DNA of 7,793 nt from a virus (IMGVR_UViG_2744054872_000002), one strand, 5' to 3'; counted from the first letter of the stretch, positions 1 to 7,493 are shown. A program made the numbers and translations. The notes: generated from the sequence alone by a model not told the origin.

Positions 1-469
1 TTAATACCCCAGCGCGATAAAACAACAATCTTCGGTGCCCTCTCCGGATGGCGACCAGTTCTGAATACTGATATGCGTTCTGCTGGCAATACGCACATTC
101 ATCGCGGCATTGTAGCCAGATGTTCCACGGTTTCCGGTCGCAAATAAGCCTGCATAGGGAAAAGCAAATGGTAAGGCATATCCAGCATCAGCTCCCTTTT
201 GTGTTGCCACCGTTCCCCACTGCAACATAAGTTTCACCGGGTTTCCTGTCGTCGCAATGCATGGAATGTAGATGTAGCCATTCCCTGACATCATTGACCT
301 GAAGCTGTCTAAATCCAGTAACTTCGAGGCATTATCTGCTCCAACATCTCGTGTTGCGGCGGTCCCTAACTGGAGCGCATTTCGGAAGGCTGATACATCA
401 GAAATATCAGCTCCATTAGCCGATTTCTGCATAGCTCCGGAGGCTTTATTTATCGTTTCTCCCAAACCA
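1..469 (-). CDS. Tail-fibre variable C-terminal (receptor-binding) cassette inside an invertible segment; silent orientation, lacks the constant N-terminal part (outside window)
   Basis: The minus-strand frame is open from 510 to a TAA stop at 3-1. The translation carries a QWG...LPFAFP motif and a Gly/Ala/Thr-rich C-terminus, typical of Mu S / P1 S / lambda Stf-type fibre tips. It begins at the crossover site next to the invertase gene and reads away from it, as Mu S'v does relative to gixR and gin. The ATG at 510 is probably incidental, since the real protein would be made only after fusion to the constant fibre part. Confidence 0.6.
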
Positions 470-537: not shown

Positions 538-1131
538 ATGCTTATTGGCTATGTACGCGTGTCAACAAATGACCAGAACACGGAATTGCAGCGTAACGCG
601 CTGGAGTGCGCAGGATGTGAGCTGATTTTTGAGGATAAAATCAGCGGCACTAAGTCCGACCGACCGGGACTGAAAAAACTGCTCAGGACATTATCGGAGG
701 GGGATACACTGGTGGTCTGGAAGCTGGACAGGCTGGGGCGTAGTATGCGGCATCTGGTCATTCTGGTTGAGGAACTGCGCGAACGCGGCGTTAATTTTCG
801 CAGCCTGACGGATGCTATTGATACCAGCACGCCGATGGGGCGTTTTTTCTTTCATGTGATGGGTGCCCTGGCTGAAATGGAACGAGAACTCATTGTCGAG
901 CGGACACGCGCCGGGCTGGAAGCGGCCAGAGCTAAAGGTCGTATTGGTGGCAGACGTCCGAAGCTCACCGCGAGTGAGTGGGAACAGGCAGGACGGTTGC
1001 TGGCTGCGGGTGAATCACGTCAACGCGTGGCGCTGATTTTTGATATTGGCCTGTCCACGCTCTATAAAAAATTCCCCTCATCAGCGACAAAGAATAAATT
1101 GTGTCATCCCTTAGCCAACCGGGACAAATAG
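538..1131 (+). CDS. Site-specific DNA invertase, small serine recombinase (Gin/Hin/Pin/Cin family)
   Basis: 197 aa. N-terminus MLIGYVRVSTNDQ carries the catalytic Ser in the YxRVST motif. Also present are GDTLVVWKLDRLGRS, MGRFFFHVMGALAEMERELI and a C-terminal GRIGGR plus helix-turn-helix region, nearly collinear with Gin, Hin and Pin as I recall them. Shine-Dalgarno AGGGGG lies at 525-530 before the ATG at 538. Confidence 0.93.
   Translation: MLIGYVRVSTNDQNTELQRNALECAGCELIFEDKISGTKSDRPGLKKLLRTLSEGDTLVVWKLDRLGRSMRHLVILVEELRERGVNFRSLTDAIDTSTPMGRFFFHVMGALAEMERELIVERTRAGLEAARAKGRIGGRRPKLTASEWEQAGRLLAAGESRQRVALIFDIGLSTLYKKFPSSATKNKLCHPLANRDK
621..682. promoter_or_regulatory. Candidate Fis-dependent recombinational enhancer within the invertase 5' coding region
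   Basis: A perfect 9-bp inverted repeat GCTGATTTT / AAAATCAGC (621-629 and 637-645) is followed by an A6 tract in GACTGAAAAAACTGC (668-682); both contain G-N13-C 15-mers with AT-rich centres. In Hin, Gin and Cin systems the enhancer lies inside the first ~150 bp of the invertase gene. Exact Fis sites cannot be fixed by eye. Confidence 0.3.
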
Positions 1132-2968: not shown

Positions 2969-3244
2969 ATGAACAAAGAAAATGTCATTACCCTGGACAA
3001 TCCGGTCAAACGTGGTGAGCAGGTTATCGAACAGGTCACGCTGATGAAACCCAATGCCGGGACGCTACGCGGTGTCAGTCTGGCTGCGGTTGCAAACTCC
3101 GAAGTCGATGCACTGATTAAGGTGCTGCCGCGCATGACGGCACCGATGCTGACCGAGCAGGAAGTCGCCGCGCTGGAACTGCCTGACCTTGTGGCGCTGG
3201 CCGGTAAGGTGGTCGGTTTTTTGTCGCCGAACTCGGTGCAGTGA
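2969..3244 (+). CDS. E: Tail assembly chaperone gpE (zero-frame product)
   Basis: 91 aa, MNKENVITLDNPVKRGEQ..., ending at TGA 3242-3244. It sits between the tube and tape-measure genes as in P2. Confidence 0.9.
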   Translation: MNKENVITLDNPVKRGEQVIEQVTLMKPNAGTLRGVSLAAVANSEVDALIKVLPRMTAPMLTEQEVAALELPDLVALAGKVVGFLSPNSVQ

Positions 3245-3396
3245 CGTTTCCGAAAAATCTCTCGGTCGATGACCTGATGGCGGATGTGGCAGTGATATTT
3301 CACTGGCCGCCATCAGAACTGTATCCCATGAGCCTGACCGAACTCATCACATGGCGCGAAAAGGCGCTCCGGCGAAGCGGAAACACGAATGAGTAA
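2969..3396 (+). CDS. E+E': Tail assembly chaperone gpE+E', produced by programmed -1 ribosomal frameshift near 3217-3223
   Basis: After a -1 slip on TTTTTTG the frame starting at 3223 reads VAELGAVTFPKNLSVDDLMADVAVIFHWPPSELYPMSLTELITWREKALRRSGNTNE and stops at TAA 3394-3396, overlapping the T start at 3389. This is the same architecture as P2 E/E' and lambda G/GT. Confidence 0.8.
3217..3223 (+). promoter_or_regulatory. -1 frameshift slippery heptamer T_TTT_TTG
   Basis: Zero-frame codons are GGT TTT TTG (3215-3223). The T6G run lies 19 nt before the E stop codon, and the -1 frame is open from this point to 3396. Confidence 0.8.
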
Positions 3397-5836
3397 CAAT
3401 GTAAAATTACAGGTATTGCTCAGGGCTGTTGACCAGGCATCCCGCCCGTTTAAATCCATCCGCACAGCGAGTAAGTCGCTGTCGGGGGATATCCGGGAAA
3501 CACAAAAATCACTGCGCGAGCTGAACGGTCAGGCATCCCGTATTGAGGGATTTCGCAAGACCAGTGCACAGCTCGCCGTGACTGGTCATGCACTTGAAAA
3601 GGCACGGCAGGAGGCCGAAGCCCTTGCCACACAGTTTAAAAACACCGAACGTCCGACCCGTGCTCAGGCGAAAGTGCTGGAATCCGCAAAGCGTGCGGCG
3701 GAGGACTTACAGGCGAAATATAACCGCCTGACGGATTCCGTTAAACGCCAGCAACGGGAACTGGCCGTTGTGGGAATTAATACCCGCAATCTTGCACATG
3801 ATGAGCAGGGACTGAAAAACCGTATCAGTGAAACCACCGCACAGCTTAACCGGCAGCGCGACGCGCTGGCGCGTATCAGTGCACAACAGGCAAAACTTAA
3901 CGCAGTAAAACAGCGTTATCAGGCCGGAAAAGAACTGGCCGGAAATATGGCCTCGGTGGGCGCTGCCGGTGTGGGGATTGCGGCGGCGGGAACGATGGCC
4001 GGAGTTAAGCTGCTGATGCCCGGTTATGAGTTTGCGCAGAAAAACTCAGAATTGCAGGCCGTGCTCGGTGTGGCAAAAGATTCCGCCGAAATGGCCGCGC
4101 TCCGCAAACAGGCGCGCCAGCTCGGCGACAATACCGCCGCCTCGGCGGATGATGCGGCCGGTGCACAGATAATCATCGCGAAAGCGGGTGGGGATGTTGA
4201 TGCCATTCAGGCGGCAACGCCGGTCACGCTGAATATGGCGCTGGCGAACCGCCGCACGATGGAAGAAAACGCCGCCCTGCTGATGGGGATGAAATCCGCC
4301 TTTCAGCTTTCAAACGATAAGGTCGCTCATATCGGGGATGTTCTCTCCATGACGATGAACAAAACCGCCGCCGATTTTGACGGCATGAGCGATGCGCTGA
4401 CCTATGCCGCACCTGTGGCAAAAAATGCCGGTGTCAGCATTGAAGAAACCGCCGCAATGGTCGGGGCGCTGCATGATGCAAAAATCACAGGCTCAATGGC
4501 GGGGACGGGAAGCCGTGCCGTGTTAAGCCGCCTGCAGGCACCGACGGGAAAAGCATGGGATGCACTCAAAGAGCTTGGTGTGAAAACCTCAGACAGCAAG
4601 GGAAACACCCGACCAATATTTACCATTCTGAAAGAAATGCAGGCCAGTTTTGAGAAAAACCGGCTCGGTACTGCCCAGCAGGCTGAATACATGAAAACTA
4701 TTTTCGGGGAGGAGGCCAGCTCAGCCGCCGCCGTGCTGATGACTGCCGCCTCAACCGGAAAGCTGGACAAACTGACCGCTGCGTTTAAAGCCTCAGACGG
4801 GAAGACCGCCGAGCTGGTAAATATCATGCAGGACAACCTAGGCGGTGACTTTAAAGAGTTTCAGTCCGCTTATGAGGCGGTAGGGACAGACCTGTTTGAC
4901 CAGCAGGAAGGCGCACTGCGTAAGCTCACACAGACGGCCACAAAGTATGTGTTAAAACTCGACGGCTGGATACAGAAAAACAAATCACTGGCGTCAACCA
5001 TTGGCATCATTGCCGGTGGCGCGCTGGCGCTTATTGGCATCATCGGTGCCATTGGTCTTGTAGCCTGGCCGGTTATCACTGGCATCAATGCCATCATCGC
5101 GGCAGCAGGCGCAATGGGGGCAATCTTCACGACGGTTGGCAGTGCTGTTATGACGGCCATCGGGGCGATTAGCTGGCCGGTTGTGGCCGTGGTGGCCGCA
5201 ATTGTCGCCGGGGCGTTGCTTATCCGTAAATACTGGGAGCCTGTCAGCGCATTCTTTGGCGGTGTGGTGGAAGGGCTGAAAGCGGCATTTGCGCCGGTGG
5301 GGGAACTGTTCACGCCACTTAAACCGGTGTTTGACTGGCTGGGTGAAAAGTTACAGGCCGCGTGGCAGTGGTTTAAAAACCTGATCGCCCCGGTCAAAGC
5401 CACCCAGGACACCCTGAACCGTTGCCGTGACACGGGCGTCATGTTCGGGCAGGCACTGGCTGACGCGCTGATGCTGCCGCTTAATGCGTTCAATAAACTG
5501 CGCAGTGGTATTGACTGGGTACTGGAAAAACTCGGTGTTATCAACAAAGAGTCAGACACACTTGACCAGACCGCCGCCAGAACTCAAGCCGCCACGTATG
5601 GCAGCGGTGGTTATATTCCGGCGACCAGCTCTTATGCAGGTTATCAGGCTTATCAGCCGGTCACGGCACCGGCTGGCCGCTCTTATGTAGACCAGAGTAA
5701 AAACGAATATCACATCAGCCTGACGGGTGGTACTGCGCCGGGGACACAGCTCGACCGCCAGTTACAGGATGCGCTCGAAAAATACGAGCGGGATAAACGT
5801 GCGCGCGCCCGTGCCAGCATGATGCATGACGGTTAA
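3389..5836 (+). CDS. T: Tail tape measure protein (P2 gpT-like)
   Basis: 815 aa, with a coiled-coil-like Q/R/A/L-rich N-terminal third and a long Gly/Ala/Ile-rich hydrophobic segment (LASTIGIIAGGALALIGIIGAIGLVAWPVITGINAIIAAAGAMGAIF...) typical of tape measure proteins. It directly follows E/E'. Confidence 0.95.
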   Translation: MSNNVKLQVLLRAVDQASRPFKSIRTASKSLSGDIRETQKSLRELNGQASRIEGFRKTSAQLAVTGHALEKARQEAEALATQFKNTERPTRAQAKVLESAKRAAEDLQAKYNRLTDSVKRQQRELAVVGINTRNLAHDEQGLKNRISETTAQLNRQRDALARISAQQAKLNAVKQRYQAGKELAGNMASVGAAGVGIAAAGTMAGVKLLMPGYEFAQKNSELQAVLGVAKDSAEMAALRKQARQLGDNTAASADDAAGAQIIIAKAGGDVDAIQAATPVTLNMALANRRTMEENAALLMGMKSAFQLSNDKVAHIGDVLSMTMNKTAADFDGMSDALTYAAPVAKNAGVSIEETAAMVGALHDAKITGSMAGTGSRAVLSRLQAPTGKAWDALKELGVKTSDSKGNTRPIFTILKEMQASFEKNRLGTAQQAEYMKTIFGEEASSAAAVLMTAASTGKLDKLTAAFKASDGKTAELVNIMQDNLGGDFKEFQSAYEAVGTDLFDQQEGALRKLTQTATKYVLKLDGWIQKNKSLASTIGIIAGGALALIGIIGAIGLVAWPVITGINAIIAAAGAMGAIFTTVGSAVMTAIGAISWPVVAVVAAIVAGALLIRKYWEPVSAFFGGVVEGLKAAFAPVGELFTPLKPVFDWLGEKLQAAWQWFKNLIAPVKATQDTLNRCRDTGVMFGQALADALMLPLNAFNKLRSGIDWVLEKLGVINKESDTLDQTAARTQAATYGSGGYIPATSSYAGYQAYQPVTAPAGRSYVDQSKNEYHISLTGGTAPGTQLDRQLQDALEKYERDKRARARASMMHDG

Positions 5837-5850
5837 GGAGGTGACGAAAA

Positions 5851-6330
5851 ATGATGCTCGCGTTAGGTATGTTTGTTTTTATGCGCCAGACGCTGCCACA
5901 CCAGACCATGCAGCGTGAATCAGATTATCGCTGGCCGTCAAATTCCCGTATCGGTAAACGGGATGCCTTTCAGTTTCTCGGTGTGGGTGAGGAAAACATC
6001 ACGCTTGCCGGTGTGCTTTATCCCGAACTGACCGGCGGCAAGCTGACGATGACCACGCTCAGGCTGATGGCAGAGGAAGGCCGGGCGTGGCCGTTGCTGG
6101 ATGGCACCGGCATGATTTACGGCATGTATGTCATCAGCAGGGTGAGTGAAACAGGGAGTATTTTCTTTGCAGACGGCACACCCCGGAAAATTGATTTTAC
6201 GCTGTCGCTCACCCGCGTTGATGAATCACTGGCCGCGCTTTATGGCGATATCGGTAAACAGGCGGAGTCGCTCATCGGTAAGGCCGGCAGTATGGCGACC
6301 AGATTCACAGGTATGACGGGGGCGGGATAA
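5851..6330 (+). CDS. U: Tail protein gpU-like (tail terminator/completion)
   Basis: 159 aa, directly after T with GGAGG Shine-Dalgarno at 5838-5842. Its stop overlaps the next start as TAATG. Confidence 0.9.
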   Translation: MMLALGMFVFMRQTLPHQTMQRESDYRWPSNSRIGKRDAFQFLGVGEENITLAGVLYPELTGGKLTMTTLRLMAEEGRAWPLLDGTGMIYGMYVISRVSETGSIFFADGTPRKIDFTLSLTRVDESLAALYGDIGKQAESLIGKAGSMATRFTGMTGAG

Positions 6331-7493
6331 TGCTGGATGCACTGACATTTGATGCAGGCAGTACGCTGACGCCGGATTACATGCTGATGCTCGACAGCAG
6401 GGATATTACCGGCAATATCAGCGACCGTCTGATGAGCATGACCCTGACGGATAACCGGGGCTTTGAGGCTGACCAGCTTGATATTGAACTGAACGATGCC
6501 GACGGGCAGGTCGGACTACCGATTCGTGGCGCTGTCCTGACGGTGTATATCGGCTGGAAAGGTTTTGCCCTGGTATGCAAAGGGAAATTTACCGTTGATG
6601 AGGTTGAACACCGGGGCGCACCGGATGTGGTCACCATCCGCGCCCGGAGTGCAGATTTTCGCGGGACGCTCAATTCCCGCCGTGAAGGCTCATGGCATGA
6701 CACCACGCTCGGTGCGATTGTTGAGGCGATAGCCTCCCGTAACAGGCTGGAAGCCAGTGTCGCTCCGTCACTGGCCGGAATTAAAATCCCGCACATCGAC
6801 CAGTCGCAGGAGTCTGATGCGAAATTTCTGACCCGTCTTGCAGAACGCAACGGCGGTGAGGTGTCGGTAAAAATGGGAAAACTGCTGTTTCTCAAAGCGG
6901 GGCAGGGGGTGACGGCCAGCGGTAAAAAAATCCCGCAGGTCACCATCACCCGCAGCGACGGTGACCGCCATCATTTTGCGATTGCTGACCGTGGAGCCTA
7001 CACCGGCGTAACGGCAAAGTGGTTACACACCAAAGACCCGAAGCCGCAAAAGCAGAAGGTAAAACTGAAACGCAAAAAGAAAGAGAAACACCTGCGCGCA
7101 CTGGAGCACCCGAAAGCGAAACCGGTCAGGCAGAAGAAAGCGCCTAAAGTACCGGAAGCGCGTGAAGGTGAATACATGGCCGGTGAGGCTGACAACGTTT
7201 TTGCCCTGACCACGGTATATGCCACGAAAGCGCAGGCCATGCGCGCCGCTCAGGCGAAGTGGGATAAACTGCAACGGGGCGTTGCGGAGTTCTCCATCAG
7301 CCTGGCTACCGGTCGGGCTGATATTTACACGGAAACACCGGTTAAAGTGTCAGGCTTTAAGCGCGTCATAGACGAGCAGGACTGGACAATCACTAAGGTG
7401 ACACATTTTCTGAATAATAGCGGCTTCACGACGTCCTTAGAGCTTGAGGTCAGGCTTTCTGATGTGGAGTACGAAACAGAAGATGATGAGTGA
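6330..7493 (+). CDS. D: Tail protein gpD-like (baseplate hub / late tail gene D)
   Basis: 387 aa, translationally coupled to U through the ATG at 6330, and last gene of the FETUD-type operon. It contains an internal Lys-rich basic segment. Confidence 0.9.
   Translation: MLDALTFDAGSTLTPDYMLMLDSRDITGNISDRLMSMTLTDNRGFEADQLDIELNDADGQVGLPIRGAVLTVYIGWKGFALVCKGKFTVDEVEHRGAPDVVTIRARSADFRGTLNSRREGSWHDTTLGAIVEAIASRNRLEASVAPSLAGIKIPHIDQSQESDAKFLTRLAERNGGEVSVKMGKLLFLKAGQGVTASGKKIPQVTITRSDGDRHHFAIADRGAYTGVTAKWLHTKDPKPQKQKVKLKRKKKEKHLRALEHPKAKPVRQKKAPKVPEAREGEYMAGEADNVFALTTVYATKAQAMRAAQAKWDKLQRGVAEFSISLATGRADIYTETPVKVSGFKRVIDEQDWTITKVTHFLNNSGFTTSLELEVRLSDVEYETEDDE

Follow-up and report, generated by a model that had tools for sequence, protein, structure and literature searches.

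In phage Mu, the alternative ends of the tail fibre are encoded in the G segment of about 3 kb, in which the constant part of the fibre gene is followed by a crossover site, a variable end with its downstream gene (Sv-U), a convergent second pair (U'-S'v), a second site and, outside the segment, the gene for the invertase Gin. The P segment of e14 with PinE (StfP/TfaP versus StfE/TfaE) and the C segment of P1 with Cin likewise combine two cassettes, convergent assembly genes and an adjoining pin-type invertase. P2-like phages are represented as well: Fels-2 is P2-like and has a fibre invertase. Likely programmed inversion in Salmonella Fels-2 is reported (PMC7953296). Experiments on growing cultures of EPEC E2348/69 found tail-fibre segments of P2-like prophages side by side in both orientations, or in four (Goldberg et al. 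2014, PMC4272514), and the same report establishes that three-site P2-like loci exist in E. coli E2348/69.

Here we analyse a stretch of 7,793 nucleotides from a virus (IMGVR_UViG_2744054872_000002), referred to below, at its full length, as the window. The window very probably opens inside an invertible tail-fibre segment of a P2-like E. coli prophage that is flipped by a Gin-like invertase. The gene order is that of the Mu G segment, from the constant fibre part through the two convergent cassettes to the invertase; the invertase gene lies outside the segment, and its product and Mu Gin have 80% identity across 181 aa (MLIGYVRVSTNDQ included). In the alignment of the window with Mu, the crossover site next to the invertase gene falls column for column on gixR, and the peptide encoded there reads NLGLQE in Mu and NVGLGE here. 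Unlike Mu, this locus belongs to a P2-type prophage, whose fibre has the Phage_tail_fib N-terminal domain of P2 H in its constant part; the segment is about half as long (1.5 kb), the tips are Gp53-like or R-pyocin-like rather than Mu tips, the 77-aa ORF among the downstream genes falls into no recognisable family, and the core of the site is AA, not GA.

The locus shares its two cassettes, convergent assembly genes and adjoining pin-type invertase with e14 P and P1 C, whereas the phage backbone differs and the K-12 e14 cassettes are at most distantly related. A direct identification of the cassette studied here with K-12 StfP or StfE was considered and rejected (28% identity over 54 aa to StfP and no match to StfE). 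The E2348/69 loci, by their description, have in common with it the P2-like prophage, the hin-family invertase with inverted repeats and the alternative fibre C-termini, but three sites and four isomers are described for one EPEC locus, compared with two sites here (PMC4272514). A literature search for phage pro483 together with the invertase found nothing. This class is long known, and flipping has been demonstrated before for P2-like members; the switch is ordinary biology, and its textbook mechanism is already known.

Tail genes of a P2-like prophage

Over its 7.8 kb, the window spans a P2-like prophage tail module, in which the serine recombinase gene (538-1131, plus strand) is followed by the genes for the tail sheath FI (1191-2381), the tail tube FII (2394-2912), E/E' (2969-3396), the tape measure (3389-5836), U (5851-6330) and D (6330-7493), with an Ogr-type zinc-finger activator at the 3' end. 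Three complete E. coli chromosomes (GZEC065, SCEC020022 and J-8) match the first 1190 bases at 100% identity, and GZEC065 served as the reference for the extended context (locus L001, in which position 1 of the window is position 9001). The order in GZEC065 is P2 I, H (420 aa), a 77-aa ORF, a convergent tail-fibre-assembly gene (tfa, 136 aa), the cassette that opens the window, the invertase gene and FI/FII/E/T/U/D/ogr. The G+C content of the invertible segment is 0.45-0.49 versus 0.52-0.60 in the flanks, which is consistent with horizontal exchange.

Further observations concern the tail genes. Close to the end of the gpE ORF (2969-3244) lies a slippery run, GGTTTTTTG (3217-3224), with the overlapping E' frame (3241-3396) downstream, which looks like the P2 E/E+E' programmed -1 frameshift for tail chaperones; the gpE and E' pieces are two separate CDSs in RefSeq. 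The P2 late-promoter motif (TGT-N12-ACA), sought upstream of the sheath gene, had its sole match at 273-290, at chance level.

The first 468 bases encode a C-terminal fibre tip

The minus-strand ORF at 510-1 encodes 169 aa, includes GYIYIP and LMLQWGTVATQKGADAGYALPFAFP, and ends with a TAA stop codon at positions 1-3. Its last 155 residues (GLGETINKASG...CCFIALGY), encoded by positions 4-468 on the minus strand, make up what we take to be the silent variable C-terminal cassette of a tail fibre. The first ~35 residues resemble Mu S/S' just after gix: in a phmmer search against solved structures, the first 35 residues (GLGETINKASGAMQKSANGADI...) match the Mu S/S' fibre (8JU3, GLQETVNQASGALQQNQNGADI...), and the tip weakly matches gp53 of Acinetobacter phage AP22 (4MTM). 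Residues ~80-155 correspond to a receptor-binding beta-sandwich tip of the Gp53-like or R-pyocin-like kind, and the Pfam domain Gp53-like_C (PF21882) is recognised in residues 94-169 of the 169-aa ORF with 35.8 bits against a cutoff of 24.9 (E = 1.2e-8); it is detected in the fused 431-aa fibre described below, too.

The 155 residues of the cassette were modelled with AlphaFold from an alignment of 33 sequences; the model has a mean pLDDT of 84.7 and consists of short helices followed by a seven-strand beta domain. The sole significant solved-structure matches of this model in Foldseek are the C-terminal parts of the R2/R1 pyocin fibres (E = 1.9e-6 to 1.6e-5, probability 1.00), with ~103 alignment columns for the R2 fibre. 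The R-type pyocin fibres (6CT8, 6CL6, 6CXB, 6CL5) share with the cassette the fold of the C-terminal tip, and with its phage the P2-type contractile tail and the need for a dedicated downstream chaperone gene; they differ in sequence (~21% identity), and their genes have no inversion switching. Among 1.84 billion representative proteins, the stronger full-length matches are 163-592 aa long, and in most of them the domain extends to the last residue. The Pfam match, the pyocin-type fold and the C-terminal position of the domain in full-length relatives make it well supported that the 155-aa cassette is a C-terminal tail-fibre tip. Both the protein searches, with their tail-fibre homologies (Mu S/S', AP22 gp53, R pyocins), and the structure prediction bear out the first-pass annotation, which had recognised a fibre-tip-like domain in this minus-strand frame.

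The fibre gene H and the downstream genes

The fibre gene H (L001 7109-8371, plus strand, 420 aa) encodes the Phage_tail_fib N-terminal domain and a Gp53-like_C tip of its own; a crossover site closes its constant N-terminal part, which is ~276 aa long. Downstream of H is the 77-aa ORF (L001 8374-8607, plus strand), ~390-630 bp to the left of window position 1. From the opposite side, the cassette of the window is followed by the 136-aa tail-fibre-assembly gene (L001 8998-8588, minus strand; Caudo_TAP, E = 1.7e-29), which begins 2 nt past the cassette stop codon and lies outside the window. The segment holds exactly two convergent pairs, each of a cassette and a downstream gene. A cognate assembly gene on the minus strand just left of position 1 had been anticipated from the window and is indeed found in GZEC065, where its product has 136 aa instead of the roughly 175 aa that had been expected.

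The 77-aa protein is encoded where an assembly gene would be expected behind the currently expressed cassette. It belongs to no Pfam family, and its sequence does not significantly resemble that of the 136-aa Caudo_TAP protein; a new kind of mini-chaperone and a truncated remnant are both conceivable. The 3' end of its ORF overlaps the convergent assembly gene by 20 bp.

The alignment of the two cassettes of the segment is confined to a junction motif of 32 aa. The cassette of the window carries ~32 extra residues (GLGETINKASGAMQKSANGADISDVSAFRNAL) ahead of the motif QLGTAATRDVG, and in the other cassette (L001 7937-8030) the corresponding QLGEAAKRDVG directly makes the inner half of the crossover site.

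A Gin-like invertase and two inverted crossover sites

The gene at 538-1131 (plus strand) encodes a 197-aa serine DNA invertase of the Gin/Cin/Pin/Hin family with Resolvase (E = 2e-52) and HTH_7 (E = 1e-12) domains; the ORF is intact, contains the catalytic-serine motif YVRVSTNDQ and is preceded by a Shine-Dalgarno sequence, GGGGGA, at 526-531 on the plus strand. The best relatives of the protein among solved structures are those of Gin (3UJ3/4M6F, E = 1.6e-94), and the first 223 bp of the gene have 70% DNA identity to Mu gin.

The homology to Mu Gin stops at residue 181, and the DNA similarity to several phages stops at 1073-1076, so that the last 16 residues (SATKNKLCHPLANRDK; window 1076-1131) apparently are read from the P2 backbone upstream of the sheath gene; judging from these end points, 1076-1131 seems to be the right-hand boundary of an imported inversion module. 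The gene also contains a 12-bp direct repeat, GCTGATTTTTGA, at 621-632 and 1032-1043. In strain 1000C-3 (L002 4740-4760), the 411 bp between the two copies are deleted, the invertase gene is a pseudogene and the studied cassette is locked in the expressed orientation; the partner cassette is shorter there (108 aa), and its crossover site is still present.

The crossover site proximal to the invertase gene, the equivalent of gixR or cixR, occupies 26 bp at 457-482, with the sequence TTCTCCCAAACC-AA-CGTTTAAGAAAA and the 2-bp core at 469-470; its minus strand encodes ..FLNVGLGE.. The sequence occurs nowhere else in the 19-kb locus, and 200 shuffles gave 0 matches. A spacer at 483-537, which contains ATG-ATG on the minus strand (510-505), puts 55 bp between the site and the start of the invertase gene, and the distance between gixR and gin in Mu is about equal. 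The crossover site that the first-pass annotation placed between ATG 510 and the cassette is thus of the Gin type and adjoins a gene for a Gin-like invertase. Megablast comparison with 50,697 phage records gave matches that all begin at 447-471, and none spans the cassette; since the similarity to phages begins at the crossover site, the site is a mosaic boundary as well.

The partner site, TTCTCACATACC-TT-CAATTGGGAGAA, lies left of the window within the P2-type fibre gene H, at L001 7923-7948. It was missed by a generic inverted-repeat search (seed 8) and by a pattern search with 3 mismatches, and was found on reading the H sequence and then by a scan with the palindromic consensus TTCTCCCAAACC-NN-GGTTTGGGAGAA across all 19 kb. 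With a maximum score of 24, the invertase-proximal site scored 20, the H-proximal site 19 and the next best position 15. The H-proximal site departs from this consensus at 5 positions, its inner half containing CAATTG versus GGTTTG in the consensus; because the QLG..A..RDVG motif is conserved at both cassettes, this degenerate half-site, CAATTGGGAGAA, may have been derived from that fibre motif. An orphan site, that is, a dead switch, was briefly suggested by the missed partner and is refuted by the degenerate partner in H and by the natural flipped isomer described below. As the 19 kb contain exactly two sites, the locus is, judging from the site scan, a two-state switch and no shufflon.

Inversion creates an in-frame fibre fusion and is seen in other genomes

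The cores of the two sites, which are 1532 bp (~1.5 kb) apart, are complementary when read on one strand (TT on the left, AA on the right), and both occupy codon positions 2-3, so that inversion yields an in-frame fusion. Inversion of the 1532 bp in silico gives an H protein of 431 aa that ends ...LLTYLGLGETINKASG...CCFIALGY. The predicted fusion has the length of the annotated 'phage tail protein' in strain 1000C-3 and in a further locus (L003), and the junction DNA matches too. That inversion would join the cassette to the upstream constant part of the fibre, as had been supposed from the window, agrees with this fusion and with the junction being contiguous in 75 genomes; in the copies in the active orientation, the same sequence is the C-terminus of 431-aa H fibres.

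These junctions were counted with four junction queries in all complete E. coli genomes, a single contiguous match covering at least 80% of the query being scored. The predicted inverted left junction (400 bp of constant H and 500 bp of the cassette) was present in 75 genomes, at 97.9-99.1% identity among the 30 matches listed, with the cassette annotated under 'phage tail protein | tail fiber assembly protein'. The predicted inverted right junction (the other cassette and the invertase gene) was present in 15 genomes, the right junction of the window type in 51 and the left junction of the window type in 5. The unequal counts show that the partner of the cassette varies from prophage to prophage; in strain NDM2, for example, the partner is formed by an H of 428 aa and a tfa of 200 aa.

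Both inverted junctions, 1532 bp apart, are combined with an intact invertase gene in SCPM-O-B-12142, where the site in H reads TTCTCGCATACC-TT-GGTTTGGGAGAA and the site beside the invertase gene TTCTCCCAATTG-AA-CGTTTATGAAAA. By this sequence comparison, the SCPM-O-B-12142 prophage is the exact reciprocal flip of the window arrangement, with the half-sites swapped at the 2-bp core. The survey across genomes shows that both orientations occur naturally, with the exchange at the core.

In strain NDM2, the record 'plasmid unnamed3' (L009, NZ_CP083887.1, 43,140 bp) contains a whole P2-like prophage with the silent cassette, in the same arrangement as on the NDM2 chromosome. The record also includes the chromosomal genes yegQ, udk, dcd and asmA and many frameshifted CDSs. 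We considered this 43-kb 'plasmid' as an excised phage or episome; given the chromosomal genes and the frameshifts, it is probably an assembly artefact.

The route that these elements suggest is the one known from the Gin/Cin/Pin/Hin paradigm. Two variable C-terminal cassettes, each with a small downstream gene, face each other between the H site and the site at 457-482. By analogy, the Gin-like invertase (538-1131), acting locally with Fis and with an enhancer in the 5' region of its own gene, would pair the two inverted 26-bp sites, cut at the 2-bp core (AA/TT), rotate the strands and religate them, flipping the 1532-bp segment. In the current orientation, cassette 468-4 points away from H and, by the anatomy of the locus, would be silent; after inversion, it would be fused in frame to H as a 431-aa fibre, with the 136-aa Caudo_TAP chaperone gene directly downstream in the late operon. 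As in Mu G, P1 C and e14 P, the expected consequence would be virions with a different receptor-binding tip and a different host range, a change that we infer from the divergent tips and from the fold of the receptor-binding domain.

Alternative readings of the locus

RefSeq/PGAP annotates 510-1 as a CDS, 'gp53-like domain-containing protein' of 169 aa, in hundreds of E. coli genomes, and the 169-aa protein forms clusters with hundreds of members, so a genuine stand-alone gene that provides a free fibre-tip protein in the lysogen has to be weighed; we judge it highly improbable. The frame is open from the ATG-ATG pair at 510-505, where the minus strand reads ...CCCCCTGAATAAAAACCGGGG-ATG-ATG-CCA..., and a GGGG run directly abuts the first ATG (510-508), which is preceded by AATAAAAACCGGGG and lies 26 nt beyond the crossover site. 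However, no Shine-Dalgarno sequence with proper spacing precedes ATG 510, a search for sigma-70-like promoters on both strands of 1-1300 found none, and about half of random stretches of 14 codons are free of stop codons. The 14 codons from the ATG to the core lie outside the invertible DNA; as this leader, the window has MMPVSCYLCIFLNV, a second cluster has MMPVSRYLFIFLNV, and the flipped isomer, in which the leader stands equally before the other cassette, has MMPVTRYLCIFINV. Being outside the segment, variable, with non-synonymous changes between relatives, and shared with the other cassette, the leader is part of the upstream region of the invertase gene and not of the cassette. Furthermore, the product would be devoid of the N-terminal Phage_tail_fib domain that is needed for joining the baseplate, and a like over-extension is found in the RefSeq record of Mu (L004 3068-4054), in which the S' variable CDS Mup52 ('predicted by GeneMark') extends 28 nt past the boundary of the G segment and reaches an out-of-segment ATG, as at 510 here. 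Most likely, the 169-aa CDS is an artefact of ORF calling. The absence of a credible start of the cassette's own, which had been inferred earlier from the window, stands, given the lack of a promoter match and a leader that is foreign to the segment; the position of ATG 510 beyond the crossover site stands too, whereas the claim that it has no ribosome-binding site has to be narrowed to the absence of a properly spaced one. Pointing away from H, without a promoter and without a usable translation start, the cassette would be silent in the orientation of the window, as far as the anatomy of the locus tells.

That the switch is a fossil, the cassette being a leftover that is no longer invertible owing to decay of the H-proximal site or loss of the enhancer, appears very unlikely. 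This reading draws on the 5 mismatches of the H-proximal site, on the rarity of the left junction of the window type (5 genomes) and on the related prophage of 1000C-3, locked after the 411-bp deletion in the invertase gene by way of the 12-bp repeat. Against it stand the intact invertase ORF with its catalytic motif and its high identity to Gin, a cassette and tfa that are both intact, with up to 100% protein identity to copies that other elements have in the expressed position, and the occurrence in nature of the exact flipped isomer with the same degenerate half-sites. Natural hix sites, moreover, tolerate strongly divergent half-sites. In addition, other Pin-type invertases of E. coli could act in trans, as PinQ does on the e14 P segment (PMC12529663). 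A multi-site, shufflon-like system with a choice of three or more fibre tips, of the kind known from p15B Min and from the three-site P2-like loci of EPEC E2348/69 (PMC4272514), might be evoked by the 32-aa stretch after which the cassette has a second LQLG..A..RDVG motif resembling the junction of the other cassette. The DNA of this internal motif (ALQLGTAAT), however, did not score as a site, only two positions in the 19 kb reach 19/24 or more, the next best being 15/24, and the segment is filled by the two convergent cassette pairs, so we regard a third tip at this locus as exceedingly improbable. The preferred reading remains the two-state switch operated by the Gin-like invertase.

The cassette is found on several fibre backbones

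In a collection of 5.8 billion proteins, the identical 155-aa cassette (97-100% identity) is joined at ...LGLGE to several unrelated N-termini: in a 252-aa protein of E. coli and Salmonella, in a 250-aa Enterobacter protein, in a 268-aa protein and in a fragment with Phage_fiber_2 repeats. The N-terminus of the 252-aa protein, joined to the cassette at ...NLGLGE, comprises its first 97 residues, which appear to be the constant part of an e14-type StfP fibre. The gene for this version lies behind a Mu-type baseplate (homologues of gp45-gp48) and is followed by a Caudo_TAP gene of 136-148 aa; of three places examined, two continue with a convergent cassette that has a Collar domain and its own tfa, and one of those two has a resolvase-family gene after it.

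Altogether, the cassette with its chaperone is found on at least four fibre backbones in E. coli, Salmonella and Enterobacter (P0014, P0003, P0020 and P0094; L006-L008), and near-identical fragments of the cassette are also named from Klebsiella and Citrobacter. In the four fibre sequences that we read, the join is at ...LGLGE, the peptide of the crossover site. The crossover site seems to be a joint for the exchange of tips between phage families.

Implications

The fibre switch might also be of use to the host. After PinQ-driven inversion of e14 P, StfE2 reportedly masks the receptor and blocks the adsorption of unrelated phages (PMC12529663). By analogy, the cassette in the ON orientation in a lysogen could provide a fibre that masks an outer-membrane or LPS receptor and blocks unrelated phages, the flipping being the work of the resident invertase or, in trans, of PinE, PinQ or PinR; we consider this extension very improbable. 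If it were true, the recurrence of the cassette on e14-type, Mu-baseplate-type and P2-type elements would reflect selection on the host, and prophages with a deleted invertase gene, locked in the ON state, would fit such selection.

The practical results are the coordinates of the sites and their cores, the proof that the fusion is in frame, the natural flipped isomer and a warning about the 169-aa CDS, which in RefSeq most plausibly represents the silent half of an invertible fibre gene rather than a separate gene. Host-range predictions for such P2-like prophages, and for tailocins engineered from these, have to take both tips into account. The exchange of cassette and chaperone exactly at the crossover site suggests that invertase sites double as recombination joints in fibre mosaicism.
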